Source of the DNA: a virus
Lineage: Duplodnaviria > Heunggongvirae > Uroviricota > Caudoviricetes
Strand: one strand, 5' to 3'
Length of the DNA stretch: 64,000 nucleotides
IMG/VR virus record: IMGVR_UViG_3300033062_002687
Positions 647 to 12,325 of this stretch are shown here, piece by piece; the stretch's first letter is position 1, and the number at the start of each line of letters is the position of its first letter. The notes beneath the pieces are model-generated. The model made no database searches. It was not told where the DNA came from and saw only the letters and a program-made list of their open reading frames with translations. Made by a program: the position numbers and the translations under genes.

Positions 647-761
647 TGGCTCGAGGGAGGATCGAACTCCCGTTCTCACGGATTCTTAGTTGAAATCCGC
701 AGGCATATAATTCACGGATACCAAGTATCAGCCGTGCGCCTTGCCACTTGGCCATCGAGCC
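647..761 (-). tRNA. tRNA-Ile, intron-containing, with GAT and TAT anticodon cassettes
   Basis: Acceptor GGCTCGA/TCGAGCC; CACGG/CCGTG stem; 43-nt insert 683-725; two BHB-like solutions. Confidence 0.85.
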
Positions 762-3664: not shown

Positions 3665-3796
3665 CGCCCAAGGCCGGAGTTGAACCGACACGCCTTTTAC
3701 AGCCCCTGTTTTCCAGTCCTGGCTTCAAGTCCTGATATTCGATTCCTGGCTCGAATTAGCAGACAGGTGAATCAGGCCATAGATTCTATCTTGGGC
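3665..3796 (-). tRNA. tRNA-Ser with a 46-nt insert holding GCT, CGA, TGA and GGA anticodon cassettes
   Basis: Acceptor GCCCAAG/CTTGGGC, G73, long variable arm, CCTGT/ACAGG anticodon stem. Confidence 0.85.
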
Positions 3797-3936: not shown

Positions 3937-4085
3937 TGCGGGTGTAGGGAATCGAACCCTATCCGCCACCTTGTGGCATCAGATTTCTTCCGAATGGATT
4001 TAAGTTCCGTCTTGAGTGACGTCCTAAGTTCTAAGTTTCGTCTCATTGATCTTAGTCTGACGCTTCTCCATCCAGCTCCACCCGC
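3937..4085 (-). tRNA. tRNA-Leu with a 65-nt insert holding AAG, TAG, CAA and TAA anticodon cassettes
   Basis: Acceptor GCGGGTG/CACCCGC, A73, long variable arm GCCAC/GTGGC, TCAGA/TCTGA stem. Confidence 0.85.
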
Positions 4086-4215: not shown

Positions 4216-4322
4216 TGGGACTGACCGGATTTGAACCGGTACCGACTGGTTCCTCCTTCCTTTCATCCTATAACTCTCTGAGACCTGGAGCCAGTAATTC
4301 TGCCTGATTAAAATACAATCCC
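4216..4322 (-). tRNA. tRNA-Trp(CCA) with 34-nt intron (4251-4284)
   Basis: ACTGG-CT-CCA-G[intron]A-CCAGT; central helix CTCC/GGAG. Confidence 0.88.
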
Positions 4323-4323
4323 G

Positions 4324-4478
4324 CGGGCATCGAAGGACTTGCACCTTCTTCCTCCTGTTCACTGTTATCTTCACCAAGCACAAGAGTGGTCCCTCGTGGA
4401 AATGACATCAATGGACTTTGGTTTCCATTGGTGAATGATGCTAACAGACAGGCGCTCATCTATATGAGCTTGATGCCC
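4324..4478 (-). tRNA. tRNA-Asn(GTT) with 82-nt intron (4360-4441)
   Basis: CCTGT-CT-GTT-A[intron]A-ACAGG; central helix CTGT/ACAG; intron stem TTCACCAA/TTGGTGAA. Confidence 0.88.
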
Positions 4479-6858: not shown

Positions 6859-7374
6859 TTAGGAGCATTTTTTTCTCATCATAAATTTATTTGCAAGATA
6901 CTCCTCATCATCTTGCGAAAAGCCCTTTCGCATCTTCATATGGTCCAAAACATGATGATGCCCAACTTCATGAGGAATAACGTATTCATCCATATATTTT
7001 TGGAGCTCATGCCTCTCGTCAAGCTCAGGTATCATCTTTTTGTATCTCATACCTTTCTTTGTTTTGATCACTGGTTCTGAATAAACATTGATGCGATCAG
7101 CCTTATCAGAATATTGAGCAAATGCCTTAGTTTGCTCAGTAAAAGAAAGCTTTGAAGGAGGCCTGAATGAAACCTCCTTTAAGCCTGTTAGCTGCTCTTC
7201 CGGCAGTGTTTCTAATACCCTCTTTGCCTCTTGAGGAGAGATCGGGTAAACATGATTCTTATATGTAGACTTAACTGTGATTGGAATTTTCACCTTACCT
7301 TTCTTCACGAATGCTGCTGTCCTGATGCCTTTTCTCGCCATTCTATGTCTCCAAGATTCCCATTTCCATGTCAT
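6859..7374 (-). CDS. Tag-family protein, zincin-like metallopeptidase
   Basis: WESWRHRMARKGIRT tag; HEVGH with downstream EE. Confidence 0.75.
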   Translation of the reverse strand: MTWKWESWRHRMARKGIRTAAFVKKGKVKIPITVKSTYKNHVYPISPQEAKRVLETLPEEQLTGLKEVSFRPPSKLSFTEQTKAFAQYSDKADRINVYSEPVIKTKKGMRYKKMIPELDERHELQKYMDEYVIPHEVGHHHVLDHMKMRKGFSQDDEEYLANKFMMRKKCS

Positions 7375-8330
7375 TGTTTATCAACTCCTTCAATCTTCAT
7401 CCAAGCAGCTTTTACTGCAGGCTTCTTATCAGGATATACATGCTTAAGATCTTTATATGATGCACCTTGATCCTTTAACCATGAAACATCATCTAGGAAT
7501 TCACGAGAGACTGTCGGCAAAGGATCATATTGCTTACGTCGACCAACAAGCTGAGGACCAATTGAAGGTTCTGACCAGGTTGAAGTTGGTTTCTTTGCAT
7601 CATATTTATTATCTTTTTTTATAAATTCTTCTATTTCTTCATCAGAATAATCCAATAATTTACCTATTTTTTTATGAAACACAGGATTATGTTTGATCTC
7701 TTTTGTTGGGATTGATTCATAAATATTTTTCAATTCACGAGCAACATGTTCTTTTTCAGGTTGAAAATACAGGAAATCGTGATAAAGTGGTGGAATATCA
7801 TGCTCAACAGTCAACATCGGCAAATTTGTTTTAAGCGAATGCCCTGACATAACAACCGCTTTGTTTCCTGATTCGACTTCTTTAAGCTGTTCTTCATCTG
7901 ACATCTCGGAAAATTTTTTAGCTTGAAAAAGCTTAATACGCCTTTTTCTATCAATCTCATCCTGATACTTCATTTTTGCAAGAATTTCATCAGGATTTTG
8001 TTCAATAAGATTTTTGAATTCCTCATTTGAATAAGAAGAATCAATTGCCTTAAACCTAGTTCTTGCAAATTTTCTCTTTGCTAATTCATCCTTCCCCTCC
8101 TCAAATAATCGCTTCATATTACTTAAAATCTGCTCAGGTGATTCTCCATGTATGGAGGTTACTGGAACTGAATCATCCATAACTCTTATGAATTCCTTTC
8201 TTGCCAAATACCTACTGTTCGCTTTATCATATTTTGTTTTTATGCCACGAGCTGCTAGAGCATGCTGCCAACTATGCAGAAACCATCCTTTTCCAAACGA
8301 CTGCTTGTATTTTTGCTGTAGATTCATCAT
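7371..8330 (-). CDS. Tag-family multi-module protein
   Basis: GWFLHSWQHALAARGIKT tag. Confidence 0.75.
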   Translation of the reverse strand: MMNLQQKYKQSFGKGWFLHSWQHALAARGIKTKYDKANSRYLARKEFIRVMDDSVPVTSIHGESPEQILSNMKRLFEEGKDELAKRKFARTRFKAIDSSYSNEEFKNLIEQNPDEILAKMKYQDEIDRKRRIKLFQAKKFSEMSDEEQLKEVESGNKAVVMSGHSLKTNLPMLTVEHDIPPLYHDFLYFQPEKEHVARELKNIYESIPTKEIKHNPVFHKKIGKLLDYSDEEIEEFIKKDNKYDAKKPTSTWSEPSIGPQLVGRRKQYDPLPTVSREFLDDVSWLKDQGASYKDLKHVYPDKKPAVKAAWMKIEGVDKQ

Positions 8331-9196
8331 AGACCCCACTGATGCCTTTTTCTTGGACTAATCCATTTATCACCAGATGGCTCATCATCTTGATAATCAT
8401 CTTCATTGCGTATTTTCTTTTTGACTTGATATTTCATTGCCTTAAAAACATCCTTTTCTTCCTTAGACATATTTTCTGTTGCTTTTTGTAATTTTTCTTT
8501 CTGTAATTCCTTCGATAACTTCATCGCACCTGTAGATCCAACAGCCTCGGTGACAGGAACACCACGCTTATATATTTGTTTTTTCATTCTTTCTGTAAAA
8601 TGTACAGCTCTTTTTTCTGCACCAAGCGGCTCATGTTTTGTGATAAGATCATCCCATGTCCACTCTTTTGAATCAGAAGGCTTTCCTTCAATCTCTTTCC
8701 AATTACCAGTAGATTCATCAAAAATACTTGGCAAACCTTTCTTTCTTCTAGCTTCATCCTCTCTGAAATGAGCATATTCATGAAAAAATGAACTTTCTGA
8801 ACCAGGCATATGAGCATATTTCAAACTAATAAATGGAATTTGACTTTTATTTGTGCGTCCATATTGCGCACTAGTTTCAAATTCAGAAGCACCAGATTCA
8901 TCATGCTCATATGCAACTTTTTTATCAGCCATTTCTTTAATTATACCTGGTCTGATTTTCTCATAGGTTTCTAAAGCATGGATCACAGCATCACGATCTT
9001 TTGGTGAAATATTTTTATTAATTTCTATCTTTTCTCTCTTACCTTCTAAAGAATAAGGAACATGAACTAAATCTGGATATATTTTTCCTTCATGTTTAAA
9101 GACAAAATGTCTAGTTTTGATGCCTTTGGCTGCTAACATGTGTCGCCAACTATCTTTAAACCAACCCTTCATGTTGAACTTGTATTTTGGGTTCAT
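8327..9196 (-). CDS. Tag-family protein, zincin-like
   Basis: Tag; HEYAH...EKRA. Confidence 0.75.
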   Translation of the reverse strand: MNPKYKFNMKGWFKDSWRHMLAAKGIKTRHFVFKHEGKIYPDLVHVPYSLEGKREKIEINKNISPKDRDAVIHALETYEKIRPGIIKEMADKKVAYEHDESGASEFETSAQYGRTNKSQIPFISLKYAHMPGSESSFFHEYAHFREDEARRKKGLPSIFDESTGNWKEIEGKPSDSKEWTWDDLITKHEPLGAEKRAVHFTERMKKQIYKRGVPVTEAVGSTGAMKLSKELQKEKLQKATENMSKEEKDVFKAMKYQVKKKIRNEDDYQDDEPSGDKWISPRKRHQWGL

Positions 9197-9954
9197 ATAT
9201 TCTCACGTTGAAATTTTTCTCTTTCGATTCGTTCTTTTTGTTTTAAAAATTCTTCATTAAACTTTTGTACTTTTTCACCATCTAATAAAATATTTTTCAA
9301 ACTATGCGGCTCCGAATATCTTGTAACATAATTTAATTCTTCCGGTAAGCCCATTCGTTTTCTGAATCGCTGAGCAAATTTTTCTGCCTCTTCCTCAGAT
9401 TGTGCATGAGGAATATTCTTTCTCGTTGATTTATAACCAAGAACTTCATGTCCAATCTCATGCGGCAAAACATCATAAAGATATTCTTTTCGAGCTTCTT
9501 CAGGAGTCAATTCCATACCAGCAATAACAAAAGTTGATGGTTTAGTCTTTCTTGACCTAAATGGTTTTGTAAATAGAACAATTCTTCCTTCAGTAAAAGC
9601 CTGTCCATAAGTTCCTGAAGCGCCGAGAAGCATTGACGACGGAGCTTTTATCTCAACTTTTTTGACTGAAGCTTTTAATTCCTCTGGAGTCATCATTTCA
9701 ATCATTCCTTTTATCTCTTTTTCGGTAACAGGAGACCTATGAGTCTTTGGAAGATTTGACTGAATAACATCAATAGATGTTGGCTCGAGCTCGAACTTTT
9801 TGCCTCTTAAAAGCTTTATCCTGGTCTGATCTTCACCATAAGGCCAGGCTTTCTCAAGCAAAAATTTTCTTGTTTTGATACCTTTAGCCGCAAGCATATG
9901 TCTCCAACTATCTTTAAACCAACCTTTCATATTGAATTTGTATTTTGAAGTCAT
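9193..9954 (-). CDS. Tag-family protein, zincin-like
   Basis: Tag; LPHEIGH...EEEAEKFA. Confidence 0.75.
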   Translation of the reverse strand: MTSKYKFNMKGWFKDSWRHMLAAKGIKTRKFLLEKAWPYGEDQTRIKLLRGKKFELEPTSIDVIQSNLPKTHRSPVTEKEIKGMIEMMTPEELKASVKKVEIKAPSSMLLGASGTYGQAFTEGRIVLFTKPFRSRKTKPSTFVIAGMELTPEEARKEYLYDVLPHEIGHEVLGYKSTRKNIPHAQSEEEAEKFAQRFRKRMGLPEELNYVTRYSEPHSLKNILLDGEKVQKFNEEFLKQKERIEREKFQRENI

Positions 9955-9963
9955 CTCATATCC

Positions 9964-10644
9964 TTATCTATCTTCAGCTAAATCTTCAGCTAATATTTTC
10001 TCCGATAGCTTTTTGCTTTTATCTAATCTGGCCTGCCGTACAATTTTTAAAGCCTGAGGATTTAACCAGGCTGTTGACTCAGCATCCCATGAGTAAACGC
10101 TTTCAAAAGGATCTTGTTTATCTAAGCGACGATGAAAATTATGTCCTTCCATAGCCGTTTCCTTTGGCACTCTAATAGCATCCCAGTCCTTGCTCATAGC
10201 CTTCCAATCGACATTATGCAAACCTGTATGATGTAGTAAAGGAGTTTTAGCTGGATAATTTTTTGTTAAATAATCAAAATCCTCTTCTGTATCGACCTGA
10301 AATATTCGTGCATCTGATTTTGGTTTAAGCAAAGTTCCTTTTTTATCATGCTTGAAATCTGCATTTATTGCCCAATCCTGCCAATCACTTTCAACTTCTC
10401 CTTCAGGAGTATATGTTGAAGTCCACAACACACCACCAGGCTTACCTATACCCCGATGTATATTAGTTACTTCGGCAGGAATGAGTCTTTTTTTTATTCT
10501 CCTACCTGAGTGAAGCTGAAGACCGATTGACTCTGGAGAAACTTTAGGCATTTGATACTTTCTTGTTTTTATTCCCTTAGCTGCTAGCATATGTCGCCAG
10601 CTATCTTTGAACCATCCTTTCGTATTGAACTTGTATTTATTCAT
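9964..10644 (-). CDS. Tag-family protein, possible ADP-ribosyltransferase-like fold
   Basis: Tag; H...LWTST...WDAES pattern (fold assignment is inference). Confidence 0.55.
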   Translation of the reverse strand: MNKYKFNTKGWFKDSWRHMLAAKGIKTRKYQMPKVSPESIGLQLHSGRRIKKRLIPAEVTNIHRGIGKPGGVLWTSTYTPEGEVESDWQDWAINADFKHDKKGTLLKPKSDARIFQVDTEEDFDYLTKNYPAKTPLLHHTGLHNVDWKAMSKDWDAIRVPKETAMEGHNFHRRLDKQDPFESVYSWDAESTAWLNPQALKIVRQARLDKSKKLSEKILAEDLAEDR

Positions 10645-11657
10645 GGTGTATATCTCCAATCCTTTTCAGTCTTTTTCTTTGACCTTAGAGGCAACTCTTG
10701 CCTCTTAACATACTTATCATAATATCTTTCAGGTAGCGATAGATCCATGAATTCAGGTAATCTTTTTTGCTTTCTAGCTTCCCATTCAATATCAAATTCA
10801 CTTGGTGCAGGCTTAAACGAAACTTTTCTTCCTTTTCTAAATTGAGCTGCTCTTCTATCTGCAAATTTCTCACCAACGTCAGGAGATTCGATATGAGCAA
10901 GTTCATGGGGCAAAACATGATAAAATATTTCCTTCTTTACTTTTTGTTCTGATTTTGGATTGAATAACTGAAAATGAGCCCCACCTACCTTTTCTTCACC
11001 CGTATCTACTTCTCTGTATATGGGCGATCCAGGAATATGAATCTGCTGTCTATATCCCCAAGCTGTACCGCGCGGCCCTGGATCAAAACCTCCCAAATCA
11101 ATTATCTTTACTGGAGCAAGTTCCTTTGGTTTCATTCTTTCTATAAAATCCTTCATTTCCTTTTCAGAAATAAGATTCTTGAATCTTACTGGTTTAAACT
11201 TTCCCTCTTCAATCATTATTTGCTCAGGATAGGTTAAAATAGGCTTTTCTTTTAATTCTTCAGGTGTTACTTCCTTTATTTCAATCTCCGTTGATTCTAA
11301 AAGAGGTTTATCATCGTGATCATATTTATGTTTAGGTATAAATCTTGTCTGACCTTTTCCGAGAGGCCAAGCTTTTTCAAGCTGATATTTTCTTGATTTT
11401 CTCTCGTTAATGATCTTATTAATTTCTCCTGACAAATATTCACCAGTTTGTAACCCCTGATGACAACAAACACACATGCCATTAACTATTATGTGTTTAT
11501 CCTTCTCATTACAAGTAATACAACCATCTTGTAGATGAGCCTCTGGAATTATTTTCTTTGGTTTACTTAATAAAAATTTCTTTGTTTTAATGCCTTTGGC
11601 TGCTAACATATGCCTCCATGATTCTTTCCACCAACCTCTCATGCTGAACTTATTCAT
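10641..11657 (-). CDS. Tag-family protein, Zn-finger plus zincin-like
   Basis: Tag; CxxC...CxxC; LPHELAH...EKFAD; paralog of 9193-9954. Confidence 0.75.
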   Translation of the reverse strand: MNKFSMRGWWKESWRHMLAAKGIKTKKFLLSKPKKIIPEAHLQDGCITCNEKDKHIIVNGMCVCCHQGLQTGEYLSGEINKIINERKSRKYQLEKAWPLGKGQTRFIPKHKYDHDDKPLLESTEIEIKEVTPEELKEKPILTYPEQIMIEEGKFKPVRFKNLISEKEMKDFIERMKPKELAPVKIIDLGGFDPGPRGTAWGYRQQIHIPGSPIYREVDTGEEKVGGAHFQLFNPKSEQKVKKEIFYHVLPHELAHIESPDVGEKFADRRAAQFRKGRKVSFKPAPSEFDIEWEARKQKRLPEFMDLSLPERYYDKYVKRQELPLRSKKKTEKDWRYTP

Positions 11658-12325
11658 TATTTCACTTCTTTTCGAAGAAGCATATCACGAATCCTGTCTA
11701 AATCCTCATGCTTCTTAAATGATTCCCCATATTTATGAGCTTCCTTTTCAATATCATGTGAATCCCATTGTTTTGCTAATTCTTCTTTTAATTTTGACAA
11801 ATCCTTATGTTCCTTTACTTGTTTAACATGCATAAACTCATGACCTAATGACTCAGTGAGATGAAGAGGCTGTGATATAAAGATACCTCCTTTATCAAGC
11901 AAAGGCCCTAGATGTTTTTCTTGTGGAGCAACTATTCCTTCAGTAAAATGTTCTTTTGCAATCCCAATAGACATTTTATCGCCTAATTCGGTCTGGGAAA
12001 TTAGCCGTCCAGCAGCTGGAATCCTTAATAATCGTCCAGATTTATGAATCAATGGCATACCTATATCATAAGCAGGCTGAACACCAATTGTTAAATTTTT
12101 ACCTTTTTTCATATCAAGCCATTCAGGATGTTTTGCGATTTGTTTAACTATAATTTTACGTTCTCTTGGAGTAACTTCAGAAGAAAAAAATATTCCTTTA
12201 GAAGGTAATTGTTCCCTAAATAACTTACCGCCAAAATATTTCCTTGTCTTGATGCCTCTAGCTGATAGCATATGCCTCCATGATTCTTTCCACCAGCCGC
12301 GCATATCGAACTTGTATTTATTCAT
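11657..12325 (-). CDS. Tag-family protein, zincin-like
   Basis: Tag; LGHEFMHVKQ...EKEA. Confidence 0.75.
   Translation of the reverse strand: MNKYKFDMRGWWKESWRHMLSARGIKTRKYFGGKLFREQLPSKGIFFSSEVTPRERKIIVKQIAKHPEWLDMKKGKNLTIGVQPAYDIGMPLIHKSGRLLRIPAAGRLISQTELGDKMSIGIAKEHFTEGIVAPQEKHLGPLLDKGGIFISQPLHLTESLGHEFMHVKQVKEHKDLSKLKEELAKQWDSHDIEKEAHKYGESFKKHEDLDRIRDMLLRKEVK

Follow-up and report, generated by a model that had tools for sequence, protein, structure and literature searches.

Separate transcripts, brought together by the pairing of their leaders and joined in trans, give rise to the tri-split tRNA-Gly of Caldivirga maquilingensis and the split tRNA-Glu of Nanoarchaeum equitans, according to the portions of two papers drawn on here (PMC4390854, PMC4033280). 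These genes combine a shared body with alternative anticodon pieces at bulge-helix-bulge (BHB) motifs to give synonymous isoforms, a likeness that extends, at sequence level, to the tRNA-Leu gene described below (same portions of PMC4390854, PMC4033280). Unlike the split and tri-split genes, as those portions present them, the Leu pieces are colinear within 149 nt, lie in tandem and share one predicted donor, and unused cassettes would be lost as introns; up to four anticodons are offered, and the genes are found in viruses. Multiple-intron archaeal tRNA genes (Thermoproteales, ARMAN-2) hold up to three separate introns and give one tRNA product, in the sections cited (PMC3239211, PMC4090602). 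They share with the viral genes non-canonical cis introns in addition to one at 37/38, relaxed hBH/HBh' motifs, short introns and a predicted broad-specificity EndA (same sections of PMC3239211, PMC4090602), whereas the Leu gene has one predicted donor, three predicted acceptors and four in-register Leu anticodons, its intron sequence holding alternative exons, an arrangement that differs from the genes in those sections. The tailed archaeal virus HGTV-1 carries a near-complete tRNA set with an intron in one tRNA gene; its isoacceptors are separate genes, and a multi-anticodon gene is not described in the part of that account used here (PMC13532342).

Self-splicing group I and II introns have a core of several hundred nt, whereas the Leu insert is 65 nt long and 3937-4085 gave no Rfam match. 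Spliceosomal pre-mRNAs contain arrays of mutually exclusive exons, in which the choice is made through competing RNA pairings. The Leu gene may follow a similar logic, with one tandem cassette chosen, although machinery and substrate differ. Alternative cis-splicing giving isoacceptors from one tRNA gene had no description in the full-text literature searched (main texts, few of them from subscription journals), and supplementary tRNA tables could hold unrecognised examples. The SPLITS papers reportedly contain an in-silico proposal that single genes might encode two tRNAs, which could bear on novelty. BHB motifs, EndA and anticodon swapping in trans are already known; the cis array had no counterpart in the literature searched and apparently represents a conserved tRNA gene architecture that has not been described.

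The window, meaning the whole stretch of DNA analysed, comprises 64,000 nt of the IMG/VR virus record IMGVR_UViG_3300033062_002687 (Caudoviricetes), and the gene studied occupies 4085-3937 on its minus strand (Table 1). Reading base by base reproduced every coordinate of the original prediction for this gene, including three GACG units carrying TAG, CAA and TAA, all of them Leu anticodons. A single CGTC strand (positions 25-28) faces three GACG partners, and behind each come two bulge bases and then a seven-base loop, A-CT-NNN-R, in exact tRNA register. This gives one predicted 30/31 donor and three predicted BHB acceptors. The last units measure 12 nt, and G37 of the CAA cassette doubles as the opening base of the acceptor that follows. 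Positions 38-41 are missing from the units, which are therefore no plain duplicates of the tRNA. The window gene has G8 and G14 in place of the usual U8/A14, and six relatives have T8. The gene is absent from the ARAGORN (9 tRNAs in the window) and Rfam (10) calls; once spliced in silico, all four 84-nt products were called tRNA-Leu at the ARAGORN default threshold, as part of 26 of 26 spliced products called tRNA at that threshold.

Table 1. Positions of the tRNA-Leu gene, its parts and related tRNA genes; positions without a locus prefix refer to the window.
Feature	Position	Strand	Detail
tRNA-Leu gene, four anticodon cassettes	3937..4085	-	149 nt; predicted mature tRNA 84 nt, long variable arm, discriminator A73
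Shared 5' exon, tRNA positions 1-30	4057..4085	-	AAG(22-24) 4065-4063; C25-G26-T27-C28 4062-4059; predicted donor after G30 (4057)
Cassette 1, A31-CT-AAG-A37	4050..4056	-	anticodon AAG 4053-4051; doubles as 5' strand of CAA-site intron helix
Insert	4049-3985	-	65 nt
Acceptor 1 (GACG-AA, 4042-4037) and cassette 2, A-CT-TAG-A (4036-4030)	4030..4042	-	GACG 4042-4039; TAG 4033-4031; predicted 30/31 intron 20 nt
Extra ACTTAG copy	4024..4029	-	pairs with CTAAG, giving a 5-bp intron helix
Acceptor 2 (GACG-TC) and cassette 3, A-CT-CAA-G	4011..4023	-	GACG 4023-4020; CAA 4014-4012; predicted intron 39 nt
Acceptor 3 (GACG-GA) and cassette 4, A-CT-TAA-A	3999..4011	-	GACG 4011-4008; TAA 4002-4000; predicted intron 51 nt
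Terminal 37/38 intron core	3985..3998	-	short hairpin, GAAG helix partner (3990-3987), bulge AA; shared predicted acceptor before A38
Shared 3' exon	3937..3984	-	A38 (3984), TCTGA, variable arm, T arm, acceptor strand
tRNA-Ser	3665..3796	-	GCT (3760-3758), CGA (3741-3739), TGA (3727-3725), GGA (3714-3712); 32/33 register, partner CAGG three times
tRNA-Ile	647..761	-	GAT (729-727), TAT (709-707); 32/33 register
tRNA-Leu, window and L024			three further anticodons each; 30/31
tRNA-Leu, L027			TAA, then TAG and CAA; 30/31
tRNA-Leu, L006			TAG, then TAA (35/36) and CAA (30/31)
tRNA-Leu, L025 and L047			TAG, then TAA; 34/35
tRNA-Leu, L048			TAA, then TAG; 35/36
tRNA-Arg with 35/36 site	L005:3901-4017, L007:1929-2032, L010:7355-7472, L012:1623-1733, L049:295-400, L011:697-803, L022:2944-3047, L048:5503-5607		predicted site
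tRNAs with A34 anticodons (Thr AGT, Arg ACG)	L034:818-889, L046:2330-2404, L043:395-468, 370-279

All three 30/31 sites have a central helix with 4/4 Watson-Crick pairs, 3-nt bulges and an outer helix of 2-3 bp. The CTAAG/CTTAG intron helix that had been proposed is present at the CAA site only; the TAG and TAA sites have a 3-bp outer helix and no intron helix (relaxed hBH). When the 65-nt insert was shuffled (20000 trials), at least one new Leu site arose in 112 trials, two in 1 and three in 0. Folds constrained to the TAG, CAA and TAA acceptors are nearly equal in energy (-46.6, -46.8 and -46.7 kcal/mol), and the minimum-energy fold of the precursor shows the CAA-site helix with an AGA bulge (z -3.75, 0/200 shuffles). 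The shared 37/38 site is weaker, as had been claimed, its helix having 3/4 pairs with TAG or TAA in place and 2/4 with CAA or AAG. Single-anticodon introns at 37/38 (n = 16) are paired 4/4 in 12 cases and 3/4 in 4, hence TAG and TAA fall inside that range and CAA and AAG below it; several non-terminal Ser and Ile cassettes are likewise 2/4. Folds at 37/38 carry a penalty of 3.6-7.2 kcal/mol relative to the free fold, and base 32 is paired with the base just before the 3' bulge in all 44 insert genes collected below. The 37/38 cut is thus the weak step of the multi-product reading, chiefly for CAA and AAG.

The layout suggests a two-step pathway. CGTC would first pair with one GACG or with none; a 30/31 cut by EndA, followed by rejoining by RtcB, would place TAG, CAA or TAA at positions 34-36, and no cut would leave AAG. 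A second cut at 37/38 would then discard all downstream insert and fix the anticodon. Further 12-nt units would stay removable until the 37/38 cut, so the mix of products would be set by competing rates. The cutting enzyme would be an EndA of broad specificity supplied by the host, probably one of DPANN type; neither EndA nor RtcB was matched among 49 window proteins or 120 proteins of relatives (120 of 132 listed ORFs), hence host enzymes are assumed. In the parts of the reports cited, the ARMAN-2 EndA cuts relaxed motifs and a 13-nt intron (PMC3239211), and the S. tokodaii EndA cuts a mismatched central helix (PMC4307357). From the arrangement of the sequence we infer isoacceptor switching by the Leu gene. 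It is probable that one Leu transcript is alternatively cis-spliced by the host endonuclease into at least two isoacceptors; that all four Leu tRNAs (AAG, UAG, CAA, UAA), and with them every Leu codon, come from the one gene in this way is a tentative proposal, somewhat short of an even chance. AAG is the least certain product, and may be real or simply the complement of the TAG cassette. CTT makes up 26.5% of the window's 1281 Leu codons, and the AAG helix at 37/38 is 4/4 paired in the related locus L024, both of which favour an AAG product. Leu(AAG) in ARMAN-4/5, present in the text cited (PMC3239211), favours it as well; against it, there was no plain Leu(AAG) gene among 12 plain Leu calls.

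The main rival reading of the motifs is nested introns, the 30/31 introns being removed successively until only the last cassette (TAA) matures, with the upstream anticodons as leftovers of duplication or of fusion between neighbouring isoacceptor genes. After each 30/31 cut the next GACG would indeed re-form a relaxed motif around a 12-nt unit, and the poor 37/38 pairing of AAG and CAA fits this reading, as does the Ile 37/38 helix, which suits the last cassette better (3-4/4 vs 2-3/4). Furthermore, a 32/33 partner copies the 3' stem strand, hence duplication alone creates a partner. However, the Leu unit, without positions 38-41, is no plain duplicate. We consider successive removal unlikely, for this reason and for those that emerge from related genes below.

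Related loci were collected from metagenomes by aligning 22 release-factor homologues, which gave 45 loci independently of tRNA sequence. Two DNA patterns added L047, L048/L051 and L049, with L051 excluded as a duplicate of L048. The analysis used 44 genes that carry an insert in the anticodon loop, of which 30 decode Leu, Ser, Ile or Arg and the remaining 14 a different amino acid; genes with inserts in the D-loop, T-loop or variable arm were excluded, and three stem anchors were set by hand. The window-type Leu pattern had 0 matches in viral contigs, another pattern scan returned only the L048/L051 records again, and protein searches of viral and genome contigs yielded no locus. A pattern match in L001 lay inside a protein gene without tRNA context and was set aside as chance, and L050 and 12 genome matches of the Ile pattern (L052-L063), which had no tRNA context, were dropped as chance.

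The Leu gene of L024 has the window design with CAA and TAA exchanged, and one of its partners reads GGCG and still pairs. The two genes agree at 36/43 positions across the cassettes, at 12/20 and 27/42 in the outer exons and at 7/13 in the terminal intron; cassette 1 (A-CT-AAG-A) is identical, and the extra ACTTAG copy is missing from L024. Leftover triplets would be expected to drift, yet the cassette part is conserved above the exons, which argues against the nested reading. A further Leu anticodon is available in all seven Leu insert genes, via 30/31, 34/35 or 35/36 sites (Table 1), and the expectation, set beforehand, that the insert would be kept as anticodon units in relatives is therefore borne out in 7/7. 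The last cassette varies among relatives, being TAA, CAA or TAG in Leu genes and GGA or TGA in Ser genes. Terminal 'CT AAG' (L027) and 'T CAG' (L047) were considered as additional cassettes and rejected, because each leaves 1 nt over and serves as the partner at 37/38.

Comparable arrays occur in genes for Ser, Ile and Arg. The Ser order GCT-CGA-TGA-GGA is found in the window, L006, L031 and L047, GCT-GGA-TGA in L048, and CGA-GCT-GGA-TGA in L024, where all four anticodons are served by two 30/31 sites and one 32/33 site. The original prediction took the splice register to differ between Leu and Ser, and in the window it does (30/31 and 32/33, respectively), but register is not fixed per amino acid: Leu genes use 30/31, 34/35 and 35/36, the L024 Ser gene uses two, and five registers are in use across the cassette genes. 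The proposed restriction to six-codon families does not hold, as Ile genes, including the window's at 761-647, carry GAT and TAT.

A scan of the insert genes covered registers 28/29 to 35/36 and retained, for each helix, the best one. Across the 30 Leu, Ser, Ile and Arg genes it identified 60 sites, 50 with a valid loop, which offer 45 new synonymous anticodons in 27 genes, or 40 in 24 of 27 genes once the three pattern-retrieved genes are removed. Shuffled inserts gave 0.66+-0.75 new synonymous anticodons (maximum 3 in 300); since these are related genes (L031 and L047 have almost identical ones for Ser) and tandem duplication lies outside the shuffle model, the figure speaks for non-randomness and not for independent events. 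Valid non-synonymous sites numbered 4, all slipped registers, against 4.8 in shuffles, and this ratio of 45 to 4 is a second point against leftover anticodons. Most of the amino acids served by the other 14 insert genes leave hardly any room for a second anticodon; in these genes the scan gave 0 new synonymous anticodons and 3 valid sites that are non-synonymous.

Arg is the clearest candidate for a cassette gene. All eight Arg cassette genes (Table 1) have a predicted 35/36 site that would change base 36 only, and the swap is reciprocal, from TCT to TCG in five genes and from TCG to TCT in three, with two also offering CCT. Both Arg forms pair 4/4 at 37/38, and a one-base reciprocal swap with perfect 37/38 pairing for either form is difficult to reconcile with a single maturing cassette. 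The Arg motif covaries, with 98.8% of cells paired and compensatory changes (0/500 shuffles; slid controls 29-47%), and the Ile 32/33 motif covaries like it; the structures of both were drawn from these very sequences and are to that extent favoured over slid controls. For the Arg genes of L010 and L049 the best score goes to a slipped 34/35 register, whose product would carry a wrong anticodon; 35/36 alone is kept in all eight. A second Arg site at 33/34 or 34/35, with non-synonymous products, was rejected, since only 35/36 pairs in 8/8 genes and covaries.

The tRNA inventories bear on the same choice. A plain isoacceptor gene accompanies 1 of 28 cassette genes in its own locus (L024 Leu, plain TAG), a count taken over mostly partial loci; the window's own tRNA cluster extends past position 1, and a plain Leu gene may lie in that further part. 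The L048 record (linear, 18% complete by CheckV) holds 20 tRNA genes, one per amino acid, and 20 are also found jointly in L006 and L007, which are read as one virus because of shared genes. L029 and L034, without cassettes, have separate Leu genes with exactly TAA, CAA and TAG. If only last cassettes matured, L006/L007 would be left with Leu(CAA), Ser(GGA) and Arg(TCG) alone, missing anticodons that the plain-gene relatives encode. Under alternative splicing, one gene per amino acid would supply the isoacceptor set that sister viruses encode separately.

Other ways in which the cassettes could act are taken together as quite improbable: deletion at the DNA level from one 12-nt repeat to another, a decoy function against anticodon nucleases of the host, or decay of the gene. 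One run contig lacks 6 nt within 4030-4041, the duplicated ACTTAG region, the DNA of close relatives lacks the intron intervals of Trp and Asn, and the non-standard G8/G14 of the window gene could suit decay; against this, another run contig spans 3917-4163 with 5 differences and no gap, splicing would still be required after a DNA deletion, and cassettes without stems of their own would be poor anticodon mimics unless spliced. That all 65 nt leave as one long canonical 37/38 intron, with tRNA-Leu(AAG) as the sole product and the inner repeats inert, has the simplest geometry and is in keeping with the 4/4 helix of L024, the common CTT codon and the family's other A34 genes (Table 1), but is scarcely credible given the 2/4 helix in the window, a fold (-42.4 kcal/mol) about 4 kcal/mol above the 30/31 folds (about -46.7) and in-register, covarying inner motifs that it leaves unexplained.

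Ordinary 37/38 BHB introns are present in four further minus-strand tRNA genes of the window, Asn 4478-4324 (82 nt), Trp 4322-4216 (34 nt), Thr 3891-3801 (19 nt) and Arg-ACG 370-279 (19 nt). Run contigs skip 4250-4285 (Trp intron) and 4353-4442 (Asn intron), which suggests gain and loss of introns between closely related viruses. Two other tRNA-like genes on the minus strand are absent from the ARAGORN and Rfam calls: an initiator-type tRNA-Met with an apparent T-loop intron (1569-1463) and a second, heavily interrupted gene with a CAT anticodon (642-530).

The window is likely to derive from a virus of archaea. It encodes an ATP-dependent ligase, closest among named homologues to those of Aenigmatarchaeota (38-39% identity), along with an HNH nuclease, a release factor domain of eRF1 type and a collagen-like match to tail fibres. 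No capsid or portal gene was recognised among its 49 proteins; portal genes occur in the cassette-bearing IMG/VR relatives L047-L049, and two of these records have a Mu-F head gene as well. The family's Ile(TAT) and A34 tRNAs recall those of ARMAN archaea, as far as the cited text covers them (PMC3239211), and by this analogy suggest a DPANN-type host. Close to their tRNA clusters, relatives also carry an RNA ligase domain, Pth2 peptidyl-tRNA hydrolases (in L005 and L010) and a TatC-like gene (L010:614-1459, L010:1571-1918, L005:1712-2101, L022:10577-11284).

The window's eRF1-type gene is split (3645-2982, minus strand), its 5' ORF with a NIKD motif ending in CTT TAG (3513-3508) and the remainder, with the GGQ motif, lying open in the +1 frame. 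The 5' ORF was found in 35 of 43 loci tested (among L002-L046), with a TAG stop in 35/35 and NTT before the stop in 34/35, which suggests a conserved RF2-like autoregulatory +1 frameshift. Comparable recoding is described for Mimivirus eRF1 in the part of the literature consulted (PMC3521657). Several other features were recorded. A hairpin element with a GTTACTTCG motif occurs in the window (202-134, minus strand), L007 (4770-4928) and L016 (3363-3203), and adjoins Ro60/TROVE genes in the latter two loci, hence it may be Y-RNA-like, a label which is presumptive on our part and for which the window has no Rfam match. A non-coding-looking stretch with several hairpins and TGATGA motifs (2022-1568, minus strand) is covered by related contigs of runs X1-X4, and a run of ORFs at 6859-12325 (minus strand) mostly shares a common N-terminal motif (WFKDSWRHMLAAKGIKT-like), nearly all of them without a Pfam match.

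Taken jointly with the four-product reading, and just as tentatively, the data could describe an archaeal virus family with a tRNA set compressed to one gene per amino acid, in which anticodon-exon arrays were repeatedly invented in five registers, the smallest change being the exchange of one base, at position 36. If true, the rule of one tRNA gene, one anticodon would be broken, and a new class would stand beside multi-intron, split, tri-split and permuted tRNA genes. The arrays would also show, in nature, how an endonuclease made of protein alone chooses between splice sites, and could serve as a model for the origin of non-canonical tRNA introns. Standard annotation overlooks cassette genes or assigns them one anticodon, hence tRNA counts and decoding tables would fall short for archaeal viruses, and possibly for their hosts.
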